A stretch of 64,000 bases of DNA from an uncultured Candidatus Rokubacteria bacterium (GTDB lineage: Bacteria; Methylomirabilota; Methylomirabilia; Rokubacteriales; CSP1-6), in contig CAVXJS010000021.1 in NCBI GenBank assembly GCA_963762145.1, positions 576,001-640,000 on the forward strand, written 5' to 3'. Below are positions 23,729-56,290 of the stretch, one piece after another (the stretch's first letter is position 1; the number at the start of each line of letters is the position of its first letter). The position numbers and the translations under genes were made by a program. The notes beneath the pieces were generated by a model that had not been told where the DNA came from, did not search any database, and saw only the letters and a program-made list of their open reading frames with translations.

Positions 23729-24580
23729 CTAGCGCGGGGTGTCGCCCGCCAGCGTCACGCGATGCATGAGGCGCTTGAAGCCGGCGTAGTCGTTCACCGC
23801 GTTGTGCTGGACGCAGCGGTTGTCCCAGAACGCGATGGAGCCGGGCTGCCACTGGAAGCGGCAGGTCAGCTCGGGCCGCACCTGGTGCTGGAAGAGATAC
23901 GCGAGCAGCGGCGCGCTCTCCTCCTCCGTCCAGCCCTGGAAGCGCGCGGTGTGGCCGTGGTTGACGTAGAGCGCCTTGCGCCCCGTCTCCGGGTGCGTGC
24001 GCGCCACCGGGTGCTCGCTCGTCAGCACCTTCATCTCGACGCCGGCCGCCTTCAGCCGGTCCTCGCGCGTCTTCGACGCCTCCGCCTTGGTCGAGGTGTT
24101 GACGCCGACCAGCCCGTCGAGCGCGCGGCGCAGGCCCTCCGAGAGCGTCTCGTAGGCGGTGTACTGGTTGGCGAAGATGGTGTCGCCCCCGTAGGGCGGG
24201 ATCTCCACCGCGTAGAGCATGCTCGCCATCGGCGGCTGCGCGAGATACGTGGTGTCGGAATGCCACACCCCGCCGAAGTTGATCTGCTCGTGCGCCAGCT
24301 TGACCACCGGCGTGATCAGCGGGCACTCCGGCAGGCCCTTGAGCTGCGGGTACTCCATCGGCTCGCCGAAGCGCCGGGCGAACGCGAGCTGCTCGTGCGG
24401 GGTCACCTTCTGGTCGCGGAAGAAGATCACCAGGTGGTCGAGATAGGCGTGCCGGATCTCCGCGATGACCGCGTCGTCGAGGGCGGCCGCCACGTTGACA
24501 CCGCGGATCTCCGCGCCGAGCGCGCCGGCCACCGGCTGCACCTCGATGTGTCGATATCTCCCGGCCTGGTTGCGCGGCAT
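23729..24580 (-). CDS. TauD/TfdA family alpha-ketoglutarate-dependent dioxygenase
   Basis: GAEIRGV, WHSDTTY, GGDTIFAN, HPVARTHPETGRKALYVN, WDNRCVQH, MHRVT. Confidence 0.93.
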   Translation of the reverse strand: MPRNQAGRYRHIEVQPVAGALGAEIRGVNVAAALDDAVIAEIRHAYLDHLVIFFRDQKVTPHEQLAFARRFGEPMEYPQLKGLPECPLITPVVKLAHEQINFGGVWHSDTTYLAQPPMASMLYAVEIPPYGGDTIFANQYTAYETLSEGLRRALDGLVGVNTSTKAEASKTREDRLKAAGVEMKVLTSEHPVARTHPETGRKALYVNHGHTARFQGWTEEESAPLLAYLFQHQVRPELTCRFQWQPGSIAFWDNRCVQHNAVNDYAGFKRLMHRVTLAGDTPR

Positions 24581-24600
24581 GAGGCCTCCTGGATTCCCGC

Positions 24601-25527
24601 CTACAGCGAGTTGAAGTGCTCGGCCATCCGCCGGCGGAGCGCGGCGTCCGGCAGCGGCCCCGACAGCGCGCCCAGATTGTCCGCCACGTGGCGGGGATTG
24701 CGCGTCCCCGGGATGACGCACGTGACCGCGGGCTGGGCCACGATCCACTTCAGGAAGAACTGCGCCCAGCTCGCCGCCCCCGCCTCCTTGGCCCACTCCG
24801 GCAGCGGGCGGCCCTTCACCCGGCGGAACATCGCGCCCTCCGCGAAGGGCCGGTTGACGATCACCGCGGTGCCCGCCTCCGCCGCGACGCCGAGCAGCCG
24901 CCGCTCCGCCTCCGGCTCGGCCAGGGAGAAGTTCACCTGCACGAAGTCGATGTCGCCCTTCCGGACGAGCTGCTCCAGATCGCCGTGCGCGCCCGCGTGG
25001 TAGTGCGTGATGCCGAGGTAGCGGACGCGCCCGGCCGCCTTCCAGTCCCGCAGCGTGGCCAGATGCGTCGGCGTGTCCACCAGGTTGTGCACCTGCATGA
25101 GATCGAGGCGATCCACACGCAGCTTCCGCATCGAATCCTCCATCTGGCGGATGCCCGCCTGCTTGCCGCTCGTCCACACCTTGGTGGCCACGAAGAGCTT
25201 GGGCCGCACGCCCAGCTCGGCGGCCAGCTGGCCGGTCACCTGCTCGGAGGAGCCGTACATCGGCGAGCTGTCCACCATGCGCCCGCCGCCTTCCACGAAG
25301 ACGCGGAGCGTCTCCCTGGCCTGCGCCAGCTCCTTGGCGTCGCCGGCCACGTCGAAGACCTGCCAGGTGCCGAGCCCCACCGCGGGCAGCGCCTCGCCGG
25401 ACTTCGGGATGCGTCGCTCCAGCAGCCCCTGCCCGCGCGACTCGGCCGGCATCACCAGCGCGCCCAGGAGCGCGCCGGCGGTCGCGAGGAAGGCGCGACG
25501 GGAGACCGGACGGGCGTCCACACTCAC
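24601..25527 (-). CDS. Aldo/keto reductase with Tat signal
   Basis: SRRAFL leader; GLGTW, DSSPMYG, ATKVW, DLMQVHNL, IPGTRNPRH. Confidence 0.92.
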   Translation of the reverse strand: MSVDARPVSRRAFLATAGALLGALVMPAESRGQGLLERRIPKSGEALPAVGLGTWQVFDVAGDAKELAQARETLRVFVEGGGRMVDSSPMYGSSEQVTGQLAAELGVRPKLFVATKVWTSGKQAGIRQMEDSMRKLRVDRLDLMQVHNLVDTPTHLATLRDWKAAGRVRYLGITHYHAGAHGDLEQLVRKGDIDFVQVNFSLAEPEAERRLLGVAAEAGTAVIVNRPFAEGAMFRRVKGRPLPEWAKEAGAASWAQFFLKWIVAQPAVTCVIPGTRNPRHVADNLGALSGPLPDAALRRRMAEHFNSL

Positions 25528-26336
25528 ACGCTCCCGTCCGCGAGACCGGCGATCAGGGCGGCAACGGCGTCGGCGTGGGTGGTGGTCATGGCGTGGTTGG
25601 CGTTCTCGAGCGTCCTGATCATACCGCGCGGCGCGTGCGAGGCAATGGCCTCCACGATCCGGCCCGTCATCGCCGGGCTCCGCGAGCCGACCGCGCAGAG
25701 GACCGGCATGGCCAGGCCCCGCAGGGCCGCCGCCGAGTACGGGTCGCGAAACGTCGCGCGGACGTCGCGCACGTTGTGCCCGGTGTGGGCGACCAGGAAC
25801 TCGCGCATCGGCGGGGGCATCTGATCGAGCGCGCCCGCGCCGAACCAGTAGTCCACCATGATCCGGACCGCGCCGGGGTCGCCGCGCTCGAAGGCCGCGC
25901 AGTAGCCCTCGAACAGCGCCTGGGCGGCGGCGAAGGCTTCCGTCTCGCCCACCGCGGCCAGCACCGGGATCGCCACCGGCTCGAACAGCGCCAGCCCCCG
26001 CGGCTCCACCCGTCCGCGCAGCGCGGTCTGGAGCGCCACCGCGCCGCCGTACGAATGCCCGGCCAGCACCGCGGGCGGGCCGACCTCCGCGATCAGCGCC
26101 TCGATCAGCCCCGCCGCGTACGAGCTGTCGCCCGGCCCGTCGTCGCGCGGGCGGCTCGTGCCTCCGTACCCGGGCAGGTTCGGCGAGATCACGCGGAAGC
26201 GCGGGGCGAGCCGATCCGCCACCGGCTGCCAGGCGCGCGACGTCCCGGGCGACCCGTGCACCAGCACGATCACCGGACCCTGGCCGGCGTCGTCGTAAGC
26301 GACCGCGTCCGCGTCGGAGATCCGGAGCGTGGGCAT
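25524..26336 (-). CDS. Alpha/beta hydrolase
   Basis: LVHG, GHSYGG nucleophile elbow, ANH. Confidence 0.88.
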   Translation of the reverse strand: MPTLRISDADAVAYDDAGQGPVIVLVHGSPGTSRAWQPVADRLAPRFRVISPNLPGYGGTSRPRDDGPGDSSYAAGLIEALIAEVGPPAVLAGHSYGGAVALQTALRGRVEPRGLALFEPVAIPVLAAVGETEAFAAAQALFEGYCAAFERGDPGAVRIMVDYWFGAGALDQMPPPMREFLVAHTGHNVRDVRATFRDPYSAAALRGLAMPVLCAVGSRSPAMTGRIVEAIASHAPRGMIRTLENANHAMTTTHADAVAALIAGLADGSV

Positions 26337-26342
26337 CCGGCC

Positions 26343-26819
26343 CTACCGCGCGCCCCGCGAGGGGGCGACCACGATGGGGTCACCCACGCCGGGCGGCACC
26401 ACGAAGGCGAAGCGGCAGTCCGGCGCGAAGCGGTCGTCGAAGCCCTCGAGCCCCAGCTCGCGCCGCCCCGCGTTGCTCCAGAGCGAGAGCACGTCGCGGC
26501 GCCCGAAATAGCCGACCCAGGGCTCGTGCAGGAAGACGATGGGGTGCGCCCGCTGCGCCTCCGGATGCTCGGCGCCGAAGTGGAGCGCGTCCTCGTAGAT
26601 CGGGCGGGCGAGGCCGCGGCGGGCCGCCTCGGCCAGCGCGTCCGACGCGGTCACCGCGCGGTCGAACCCGAGGAGGACGATCTCCGCGGGCCCGGGCGCC
26701 GCCGTGCGCGCCGGGAAGTTCTCGGACGTCACGCAAGAGTGCGCGTACCCGTACCCGCCGGCCTCCACGAGCTGCTCGGTGGAGCCCCGGCCGGCCCGTG
26801 TGATCCGGTAGCGCGTCAC
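26343..26819 (-). CDS. Hypothetical protein
   Basis: GTG start overlapping the upstream stop; globular composition (ALHFGAEHPEAQRAHPIVFL...CRFAFV). Confidence 0.6.
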   Translation of the reverse strand: MTRYRITRAGRGSTEQLVEAGGYGYAHSCVTSENFPARTAAPGPAEIVLLGFDRAVTASDALAEAARRGLARPIYEDALHFGAEHPEAQRAHPIVFLHEPWVGYFGRRDVLSLWSNAGRRELGLEGFDDRFAPDCRFAFVVPPGVGDPIVVAPSRGAR

Positions 26820-55396: not shown

Positions 55397-55792
55397 TCAC
55401 TCGATGACTTCATCTGCATGCACCAGCAGTGATCGAGGGATCGTGAGACCAAGCGCCGTGGCGGTTCTCAGGTTGATGATCAGCTCGAACTTCGTGGGCT
55501 GCTCCACGGGGAGGTCACCCGGCTTGGCGCCCTTCAAGATCCTGTCCACGTACTCGGCAGCTCGACGATAGATCTGCCGTCGATTGACGCCGTACGACAT
55601 CAACCCGCCCTCCTCGGCATAGTCTCTGCCCGGGTACATCGCCGGGAGCCTGACCTTTGCTGCAAGATCGGCGATCTGTCGGCGAAGGCTGTACGTCAAT
55701 GGATCCGGGATGACGAGCAAGCCACCTGCGCCAGCCGCGATCGCGGCCTCGAACTGGCGTGGCACCTGATCGGCGGTTCTCGCCTCAACCAA
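55397..55792 (-). pseudogene. C-terminal part of a PF04392-type substrate-binding protein between two attC sites
   Basis: [42 protein letters not shown]-terminal lobe absent. Confidence 0.85.
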
Positions 55793-55828
55793 GCCGACCG
55801 AGTTCGCGACCTCGCGCCCATCCCTGCC

Positions 55829-55889
55829 CTCTAACGTTTGAGCTCAGCGGCGGCCTGAAAGGGCCGTCCGCTGCAGCGACTTGTTAGGT
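55829..55889 (-). repeat. attC site of the first cassette
   Basis: ACCTAAC-AAGTC-GCTGCAGC ... GCTGAGC-TCAAAC-GTTAGAG; gene stop TAA lies in R''; R'' is complementary to GTTAGGT at attI. Confidence 0.95.
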
Positions 55890-56198
55890 GGAATACGCTG
55901 GGCCACCTATGCCAGGAACCACCACTGTTTTAAAGATTGCCGATTCCCGGTCGGTTGCCAACGACAAGAGCTCGAGGTCAGCGCGATAGGCGGCGAACTG
56001 CTCCTGGCCAGGGAAGCTGACAAGATGTATCTCAAACGGGATATCTGGCGAATTCTCTTGCCCCGTGCGAACCACCTTTTCAATTGAGCCGCCATACTTC
56101 CTCATGATTCGGGCCGCCTTTCGCTCATAGGCTTCGAATTCAGCAACGGCGCCTGGGCGGACCCACAGACTTACGACCCGATAGATTGGACTCTGCAC
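55884..56198 (-). CDS. DUF1330-like dimeric alpha-beta barrel protein (first cassette)
   Basis: GGAGG RBS; FEAYERKAARIMRKYGG, PFEIHLVSFP, FAAYRAD. Confidence 0.8.
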   Translation of the reverse strand: MQSPIYRVVSLWVRPGAVAEFEAYERKAARIMRKYGGSIEKVVRTGQENSPDIPFEIHLVSFPGQEQFAAYRADLELLSLATDRESAIFKTVVVPGIGGPAYST

Positions 56199-56214
56199 TC
56201 AAACCTCCAAGCCC

Positions 56215-56290
56215 ACCTAACTAGAAGTATCCCGGGCCGCATATTTCCCCCCCCCGGGGTGGGTCTGATGCGGATAATCCCGGCCGGATG
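56215..56290 (-). other. attI-like recombination site
   Basis: Minus strand ...GGCCGGGATTATCCG...GGCCCGGGATACTTCTA-GTTAGGT; GTTRRRY core at the head of the first cassette with no attC palindrome upstream. Confidence 0.7.

Follow-up and report, generated by a model that had tools for sequence, protein, structure and literature searches.

A degenerate sedentary integron of an uncultured Rokubacteriales bacterium in which attC sites are lost with distance from attI

The final fate of integron cassettes, like their origin, is a long-standing open question, and because integrons are counted in surveys by their attC sites, the remains of cassettes that no longer carry such a site go unseen. This question is raised by a 64,000-nucleotide stretch of DNA from an uncultured Candidatus Rokubacteria bacterium of the order Rokubacteriales (assembly GCA_963762145.1, contig CAVXJS010000021.1, positions 576,001 to 640,000 of the forward strand), hereafter the window, in which an array of cassettes extends leftwards from a putative attI site at about 56.2 kb and borders on genes that resemble those of the host. 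Has the array recorded, in order, what becomes of cassettes after their insertion? An original prediction made from the letters alone had proposed as much, holding that old cassettes lose attC by deletion and become fixed as pseudo-operons. The analysis described here indicates that the locus is probably a sedentary integron in which cassettes enter at attI, age leftwards, and either erode or become host-like. The window’s genome (labeled G000; other G numbers denote relatives, and Gnnn:Cnn denotes a genome and its contig) was assembled from a metagenome, has ~72% GC, and is 88% complete with 5.4% contamination; the contig exceeds 1.2 Mb. Every genome compared is likewise a metagenome assembly, in which single frameshifts could be assembly errors.

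The right end of the array retains the anatomy of an integron (Table 1). A remnant of the integrase gene intI, absent from the earlier note, joins the first ~100 bp of the gene to its last ~170 bp, which corresponds to an internal deletion of ~800 bp relative to G013 and implies that the array is no longer editable from within. The window’s genome contains no integrase over the cut-off of the TIGR02249 profile (best match 82.7 bits versus 265, in a genome that is 88% complete), and by the definition of an integron as a locus with an intI over 265 bits the window falls outside it. When the same profile and cut-off were applied to 18 sampled congeners, a full-length intI was found in eight, adjoining the same right-flank gene in seven of these (G002, G007, G011, G013, G014, G015, and G016; this was not shown for G005). 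IntI is intact in G013 (346 aa, 457.8 bits) and G002 (on contig C179), its gene is split in G001, and none was detected at the locus in G008 or G004. The putative attI adjoins the remnant and has the GTT crossover sequence where the cassettes begin: homology with G001, G013, G014, G015, and G016 breaks at 56213-56221, with different cassettes beyond, so that the crossover G predicted at 56221 is borne out by the GTTAGG motif together with the break in five relatives. A flank carrying DinB_2 lies beside intI or attI in G001, G013, G008, G014, G015, G016, G011, G002, G007, and G017, and is joined to the left flank on one contig in G001, G013, G008, and G017. The locus is common to the whole genus, and its occupation of the same place in related species is that of a sedentary chromosomal integron.

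The intI remnant lies on the same strand as the cassettes, the arrangement of inverted-integrase integrons, a group to which the locus may belong. This “inverted” orientation has reportedly been described in groups of Spirochaetes, Planctomycetes, Cyanobacteria, and Chlorobi, in work attributed to Boucher 2007 and Nemergut 2008. Relatives of IntI with 50-74% identity include records labeled Treponema, Planctomycetota, cyanobacteria, Chlorobiaceae, and Acidobacteria; because the closest outside matches (72-74%) bear mixed phylum labels, no taxonomic claim is made.

The attC sites were examined using a covariance model built from 11 aligned sites, four from the window and seven from congeners, with the structure written by hand, and the window was scanned from 22 to 57 kb with filters off. 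The predicted sites take the form of imperfect inverted repeats that pair R''/L'' with L'/R'. At the coordinates anticipated by the original prediction, the scan recovered the three intact sites nearest attI (64.2, 64.0, and 66.4 bits), the damaged sites at 53725 and 51975 (31.9 and 18.8 bits), and the intact exception at 46868 (60.9 bits). Rows of 26.5 and 17.8 bits are reverse-strand echoes of true sites, and nothing else in 22-57 kb rose above noise, all other matches scoring 17.8 bits or less. Because the four strong sites of the window had served as training sites, they were rechecked with half-site log-odds matrices derived from relatives only, in which their 3' halves (background maximum 10.1) scored 21.0-27.4 bits, and their 5' halves (background maximum 10.9) scored 21.6-25.9 bits at three sites and 11.7 at 55311. 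Covariation over 20 sites, in an alignment fitted to the model, was consistent with the proposed structure, as 88.5% of cells were paired versus 73.2% in shuffles, both sides changed in 13 of 22 pairs, and the score was 0.35 versus 0.10. Among three attC halves claimed further left, that at 45726-45751 stood (17.0 bits), while those at ~47300 and ~49666 scored below 6 bits; the single boxes claimed at 38931 and 41233/41259 do not exceed chance, 7-mers of this kind numbering 16 on the minus strand of the window and 22 on its plus strand. A 3' half at 47760-47786 was set aside because its 12.1 bits lie too near the background of 10.1, and a scan for complementary AAC...GTT pairs found the true sites but also hairpins inside genes, which were not counted. 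One of these, a 150-nt hairpin at 49674-49823 on the minus strand, with AAC/GTT end boxes complementary at 7/7 positions and a folding energy of -67.7 kcal/mol, overlaps the 3' end of a 3-dmu-9_3-mt gene; it was left unscored by the model and could be an attC of another type.

The distribution of these sites is biased toward attI. When junctions were taken, from our own annotation, as the 3' ends of 28 successive units, a cassette ending in attC was found only at units 1-3, 5, 7, and 15 from attI, leaving 22 junctions without a site. In rank tests that treat genes as independent, this arrangement departs from chance (exact Mann-Whitney p=0.0006), and attC presence declines with junction rank (rho=-0.52, p=0.0045), as had been claimed for attC integrity.

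A similar arrangement was found when congener arrays were scanned with the same model, again with filters off. G013 has six attC within 4.2 kb of attI and none over the remaining ~8.6 kb, G017 has five followed by none over the next 13.3 kb fetched, G008 has one in ~14.5 kb, and contig C197 of G002 has none in 19.8 kb while holding homologues of five window cassettes. Since the pattern recurs, including where IntI is intact, as in G013, it is a property of the genus rather than a consequence of integrase loss in the window’s genome. In G013, an IS3-family element (L023:11457-12626; HTH_Tnp_1, HTH_21, and rve) occupies the exact boundary of the attC-bearing with the attC-free part. The same genome has a second integron-like locus, on G013:C33, with two attC, an attI-like stretch 75% identical to window positions 56217-56387, and copies of cassette 1 (96%) and of the Glyoxalase cassette (96%).

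How attC sites are lost can be read from cassettes held by several genomes. In five copies of the Glyoxalase cassette, the sequence is exactly the same from the crossover GTT on. Upstream of it, the attC is intact in G013:C33 (69.6 bits), carries one altered base in each core triplet in the window (53723-53777), and has lost most of its 5' half in G008 and G013:C18. The homologue of the 54756 site in G002:C197 (12.7 bits) combines an altered core with an insertion of 6 bp and two short deletions. Deletion is shown at 39884-40879, which has the form of a fused cassette: RibD_C, which in G004:C19 sits between attC of 67.4 and 56.9 bits, is frameshifted in the window ~40 codons before its end and reads without attC into a 5'-truncated DUF1801 that stands alone in G002 and G017. 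A second weld is likely at ~47919, where homology to NmrA of G008 and G011 breaks off and a DUF7832 fragment continues in frame. The claim that attC is lost by deletion thus describes the RibD_C/DUF1801 pair, but point mutations and small indels also destroy sites. At least 10 units between 34.9 and 56.2 kb are broken (Table 1). The copy of cassette 1 in G013:C33 (positions 5580-5690 of the segment 230000-240000), compared with window positions 55800-55910, matches perfectly as far as the final base of the R'' box (..TAAC), past which the two are unrelated; this breakpoint, at the “wrong” core box, could mark off-pathway recombination.

The relative age of the units was assessed from synonymous divergence (dS), calculated by the Nei-Gojobori method with our own script for those units with a homologue in the loci retrieved. 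Relative to G008, nine flank genes have dS of 0.29-0.53, while Glyoxalase (0.047), LysE (0.137), NmrA (0.172), and the distal abhydrolase_1 (0.251) have lower values. Comparison with G017 gave 0.31 for a flank gene, 0.08 for the 73-aa open reading frame (ORF) at 46634, 0.34 for abhydrolase_1, and 0.69 for the distal 89-aa ORF (36898) and DUF1801; comparison with G002 gave 0.31-0.51 for flanks and 0.17 for PNPOx. Across the part of the array nearest attI (zone A in Table 1), dS is 0.05-0.17 to copies in G008, G017, G002, and G013:C33, as against 0.29-0.53 in the flanks. This ordering indicates that proximal cassettes are younger than the species splits, whereas distal units are as old or older. 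All ratios of nonsynonymous to synonymous divergence (dN/dS) are 0.03-0.45, those of the zone C genes being 0.16-0.32.

Composition is ordered along the same axis. Mean G+C content at third codon positions (GC3) is 0.719 at 46.9-56.2 kb (n=16), 0.778 at 34.9-46.9 kb (n=16), 0.898 at 30.0-34.9 kb (n=6), and 0.947 at 23.7-30.0 kb (n=7), and neighboring zones differ, from attI outward, with p=0.03, 0.004, and 0.008. In the 30-56 kb interval as a whole, GC3 increases away from attI (rho=0.63, p=2e-5), with no trend within either half of 35-56 kb, so that of the graded rise foreseen earlier the direction was found, but as steps instead of a smooth slope. The dS ordering and the stepwise rise in GC3 together support the proposed time order of assimilation.

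Between 34.9 and 46.6 kb (zone B), former cassettes are mixed with other material. SnoaL2 (37174), the 89-aa ORF at 36898-37167, and RibD_C are bounded by attC elsewhere, SnoaL2 having attC on the gene’s strand at seven of 13 homologous loci, while a 176-aa ORF (37599-38129) had no homologue among 150 other genomes of the order. This zone is mainly one of attrition rather than domestication, marked by frameshifted or truncated genes; the “fixed pseudo-operons” envisaged for the array describe zone C only, and the term domestication fits only there.

Zone C, by comparison, consists of six intact genes: Hydrolase_4, GNAT, HTH-cupin, a methyltransferase (MT11), FAA hydrolase, and ABC_sub_bind. 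The overlapping stop and start codons and core-like GC described for the genes further left were confirmed; a DUF805 scrap claimed there was not, as no DUF805 match was found in any of the ORFs scanned. In a protein-level map of congeners, presence and absence vary from gene to gene in zone C, without a change of order: Hydrolase_4 in the window, G032, and G014; GNAT and HTH-cupin in the window, G013, and G008; MT11 in the window, G001, and G013; and FAA hydrolase at this slot in the window only. The best homologues of these and neighboring genes in a sample of 150 genomes of the order, with 1.5-kb flanks, were scanned with the attC model (filters off, E<=0.1), leaving out own loci, those syntenic with G001, and two from unpublished genomes. 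Some of the underlying tallies also contain genomes flagged as unpublished (G051, G074, and G100), and none of the claims made here depends on these. An attC was found on the gene’s strand at one of 13 loci for FAA hydrolase, three of 12 for MT11, and two of 12 for Hydrolase_4, one of the latter flanked on both sides. The FAA locus is that of the best homologue (71% identical), with a textbook attC 18 nt after its stop codon and 5 nt before the next start codon. The attC-linked copies have GC3 of 0.66-0.78, the window’s copies 0.86-0.89. As controls, the S-methyltransferase (S-MT) and abhydrolase_6 genes had attC at 0/5 and 0/10 loci. The GNAT gene at 27551-27964 had attC-like sites at 13 of 80 metagenome loci, a collection without a matched control; all 17 matches are on the gene’s strand and six abut its 3' end. 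The check proposed earlier, whether homologues of the 24-37 kb genes carry attC in other genomes, was positive for Hydrolase_4, MT11, FAA hydrolase, HTH-cupin (weakly), SnoaL2, and this GNAT, and negative for S-MT and abhydrolase_6. MT11 is present in only 17 of 151 genomes and its closest homologue belongs to another genus (G157), which suggests horizontal movement.

Where, then, does the array end? A left border at ~34.9 kb, the point at which the DNA again becomes homologous to G001 and G013 (34881-34886) and GC3 steps up, was abandoned in view of the homologue tests and the protein-level map. The attC-linked homologues with low GC3 and the gene-by-gene presence and absence of zone C genes favor the earlier suggestion of an end near 30 kb, which the array plausibly reaches. 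The alternative end at 23.7 kb found no such backing, given the controls and a collinear flank, and only the GNAT at 27.6 kb hints at a boundary further left. Collinearity with G001 extends over 17.0-30.0 kb, that with G015 over most of 20-30 kb, and that with G002, G005, G008, G014, and G032 over parts; S-MT, the 27.6-kb GNAT, or abhydrolase_6 is missing from some collinear congeners. A luciferase-like gene occurs within 2.5-3.5 kb of the CoA-transferase gene in four of five genomes of another family.

These observations can be arranged in a single course of events. New cassettes would insert at attI (56221) and displace older ones leftwards, so that position would act as a rough clock. Ageing cassettes would lose attC through core-box point mutations or small indels, or through deletions that take neighboring gene ends with them, and because a cassette without attC is not excisable, attC-less units would pile up distally. 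Most of these would erode, as in zone B, while a few survivors under purifying selection would drift to host codon composition and become the operon-like packed genes of zone C. We infer that the genes of zone C arrived at this locus in the form of cassettes, that their GC3 rose after fixation, and that the flow was from cassette to chromosome.

Several findings weigh against this interpretation. The attC gradient is non-monotonic, junctions 4 and 6 being without attC and junction 15 intact; G001, whose intI is split, has kept seven attC over its whole 10-kb array; and the attC model, which knows only the type of this genus, would miss foreign types. Glyoxalase, LysE, and NmrA are already without their own attC, yet their dS to G008 is only 0.05-0.17, which points to fast loss or homologous recombination, in which case position is not a clean clock. 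In zone B, abhydrolase_1 (GC3 0.93) had attC at 0/9 loci in other genomes (default filters) and has the same non-integron neighbor in three other genomes, and the 40.9-41.3 kb segment adjoins a methyltransferase paralogue in G004:C238 and G008:C10; these contexts indicate that zone B is not purely composed of former cassettes. Finally, attC-linked homologues of zone C genes are rare (1-3 of 12-13 loci) and only 63-71% identical, that of HTH-cupin (one of 12 loci, on the gene’s strand) is weak, its attC being 825 nt away, and the direction of transfer for zone C is unpolarised.

Such findings invite a narrower view, in which the integron gave rise to no more than 46.6-56.2 kb, or 34.9-56.2 kb at the utmost, while 30-35 kb, together with parts of 35-46 kb, consists of ordinary accessory genes of an abutting plasticity zone, whose attC-linked relatives belong to families common in the cassette pool or represent cassettes made from chromosomal genes. 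Neither the model nor the half-site scans detected a trace of attC in 30-35 kb, where GC3 (0.86-0.94) is near that of the core, and besides the scarcity and low identity of attC-linked homologues just described, most zone C homologues are high in GC3 and lack attC, chromosomal paralogues of ABC_sub_bind number in the dozens in each genome of the order, and the homologues of abhydrolase_1 in zone B are solely non-integron. We nevertheless consider this view unlikely, as zone C is contiguous and co-oriented with the array, its genes vary singly among congeners with their order preserved, and its GC3 is below that of the flank (p=0.008). Moreover, the two neighboring control genes had attC at 0/15 loci, the FAA gene, at this slot solely in the window’s genome, has a textbook cassette as its best homologue (71%), and MT11 has its closest homologue outside the genus (82% aa identity versus 74% in the congener G001).

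A different objection is that the array simply decayed neutrally once the integrase was lost, the three proximal attC being intact only because they were the last to arrive. Consistent with this, intI is deleted in the window, split in G001, and not found at the locus in G008 and G004, no integrase over the cut-off is present in the window’s 88% complete genome, and a Xanthomonas study ties inactive integrases to gradual cassette loss (PMC12444791). It is difficult to reconcile with G013, which has the same attC-free distal ~8.6 kb despite an intact IntI, or with G002, where IntI is intact on C179 yet C197 (19.8 kb) is without attC and its copy of the 54756 site has decayed. Conversely, the split intI of G001 is accompanied by seven retained attC, and the sites adjacent to Glyoxalase have decayed in G008 and G013:C18 too, so that neutral decay seems an improbable explanation. 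A chimeric contig or collapsed repeats might also produce a mosaic with frameshifts, since all genomes are metagenome-assembled, that of the window with the completeness and contamination given above, and arrays often break contigs in relatives. The flanks and several internal blocks are collinear with the independent assemblies of G001, G013, G008, and G017, and the contig is longer than 1.2 Mb, which makes an artifact of assembly very improbable. Entry at attI followed by leftward ageing, with erosion or assimilation at the end, is the reading considered probable here.

The Xanthomonas sedentary chromosomal integron is reportedly located downstream of ilvD, a placement ascribed to Gillings et al. 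2005. The locus described here resembles the Xanthomonas integrons in occupying one conserved chromosomal site across a genus and in having an integrase repeatedly inactivated by deletion or frameshift. It differs in belonging to an uncultivated lineage with 72% GC, in the co-orientation of intI with the cassettes, in having attC-free distal zones even with intact IntI, and in the ordered series of attC state, dS, and GC3 that runs into host-like genes. In Xanthomonas, ancestral integrons had their integrases repeatedly inactivated and their cassettes gradually lost, the arrays being frozen and shrinking after inactivation (PMC12444791). A second known counterpart is the CALIN, an attC cluster without integron integrase; in the survey that describes them, an intI pseudogene lies beside 15 of 279 CALINs (Cury et al., 2016; PMC4889954). 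The window contains at least two clustered attC, as predicted by our own model, with no functional intI nearby, and would be classed with CALINs; unlike these, it keeps attI and an intI remnant and is thus a degenerate complete integron, most of whose former array would escape an attC-based finder. The joint at 39884-40879, and probably also that at ~47919, resembles the fused cassettes of class 1 integrons, which another report describes as formed by attC loss and rare (PMC4670013). In contrast to that rarity, 22 of 28 junctions here are without attC and many fusions damage genes. About 580 kb beyond the window, at G000:C21:1212406-1214224, three attC on the minus strand (53.3, 41.4, and 50.4 bits) form a second, CALIN-like cluster in a genome without an intact integron integrase.

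A degenerate integron is in itself a known entity, and the interesting part is the ordered series, replicated in congeners, that leads to host-like genes. Among the papers listed by a full-text literature search, supplementary files aside, there was none with an ordered series from cassette to host-like gene or an account of compositional drift of fixed cassettes. The window and the same locus in at least four congeners constitute a directly testable natural series that begins with intact cassettes, continues with decayed attC and with genes that are welded or broken, and ends in intact host-like genes with cassette relatives in other genera. In its most general form, which we put forward tentatively and hold to be somewhat doubtful, the integron would be a one-way conveyor into the chromosome, on which attC is lost within approximately the time of species divergence, heavy attrition follows, and survivors are absorbed as tightly packed, host-like genes beside the array, whether or not IntI is intact. 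If true, the 26 kb from 30.0 to 56.2 kb would be an ordered fossil record of a cassette’s whole life, chromosomal integrons would contribute more to the gene content of bacterial chromosomes than is apparent from counting attC, and the region adjacent to an integron would be a general and uncounted source of “ordinary” accessory genes, invisible to attC-based finders. Comparative data would then allow estimates of how fast attC sites and genes are lost and how fast composition drifts.

Table 1. Positions of the integron, its zones, and its broken units in the window (right to left within each group).
Feature	Coordinates	Strand	Details
intI remnant	56402..56576	-	175 bp; alignment to intact 346-codon intI of G013:C18
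Putative attI region	56215..56330	-	GTTAGG, crossover G at 56221
Zone A, recently active part of array	46634..56198	-	~17 units; low-dS cassettes common to other species
Zone B, attC-free mosaic	34899..46633	-	former cassettes, broken genes, and non-integron segments; no model match above noise
Zone C, probable old absorbed cassettes	30006..34926	-	six intact, tightly packed genes, including MT11 (32261-33178) and ABC_sub_bind (33919-34926); GC3 0.86-0.94
Conserved flank	23729..30009	-	TauD, aldo-keto reductase, hydrolase, dioxygenase, GNAT, S-methyltransferase, luciferase-like gene; GC3 0.92-0.96
attC of cassette 1, intact	55829..55889	-	64.2 bits; half-site matrix 25.9 / 27.4 bits
attC of cassette 2, intact	55311..55380	-	64.0 bits; 5' half 11.7 bits
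attC of cassette 3 (PNPOx), intact	54756..54830	-	66.4 bits
attC, decayed	53723..53777	-	31.9 bits; point mutations in both core boxes
attC, strongly decayed	51975..52070	-	18.8 bits; 5' half 15.8 bits; behind frameshifted ABC_sub_bind gene
attC of ABM cassette	46868..46925	-	60.9 bits; last intact site of array
attC 5' half	45726..45751	-	17.0 bits versus background maximum 10.9; next start codon immediately after
ABC_sub_bind, truncated, in cassette 2	55397-55792	-	Pfam profile positions 199-293 of 293 only
ABC_sub_bind, frameshifted	52077-53065	-	broken unit
LysE		-	two frames; single ORF in G008
Glyoxalase-like tail	49147-49338	-	weak, E=0.011
NmrA/DUF7832 joint	~47919	-	broken unit
Welded pair RibD_C + DUF1801	39884..40879	-	attC between them deleted; RibD_C frameshifted, DUF1801 5'-truncated (two broken units)
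Truncated and frameshifted gene	38939-39881	-	single 421-codon ORF in G008
Alpha/beta hydrolase in two frames	38126-38930	-	single ORF in G001:C43
SMR gene in two frames	34910-35231	-	broken unit
157-aa ORF	42070-42543	+	GC3 0.87, no family
AHSA1 fragment	40906-41124	+	profile positions 1-35 of 125

The orientation of the genes is nearly uniform. In line with the original prediction, every ORF with Pfam support from 23.7 to 56.2 kb lies on the minus strand, and a Pfam match was found for none of the 55 plus-strand ORFs of at least 90 aa in this interval; the two plus-strand exceptions it named are present (Table 1). No Rfam match was found within the window.

The ABC_sub_bind family (PF04392) occurs three times in the region, once as the intact gene at the border of zone C and twice as a broken cassette. 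While dozens of chromosomal paralogues are found per genome in the order, full-length attC-linked copies are present in the arrays of G013 and G001, and the family is a candidate for cassettes made from the lineage’s own genes.

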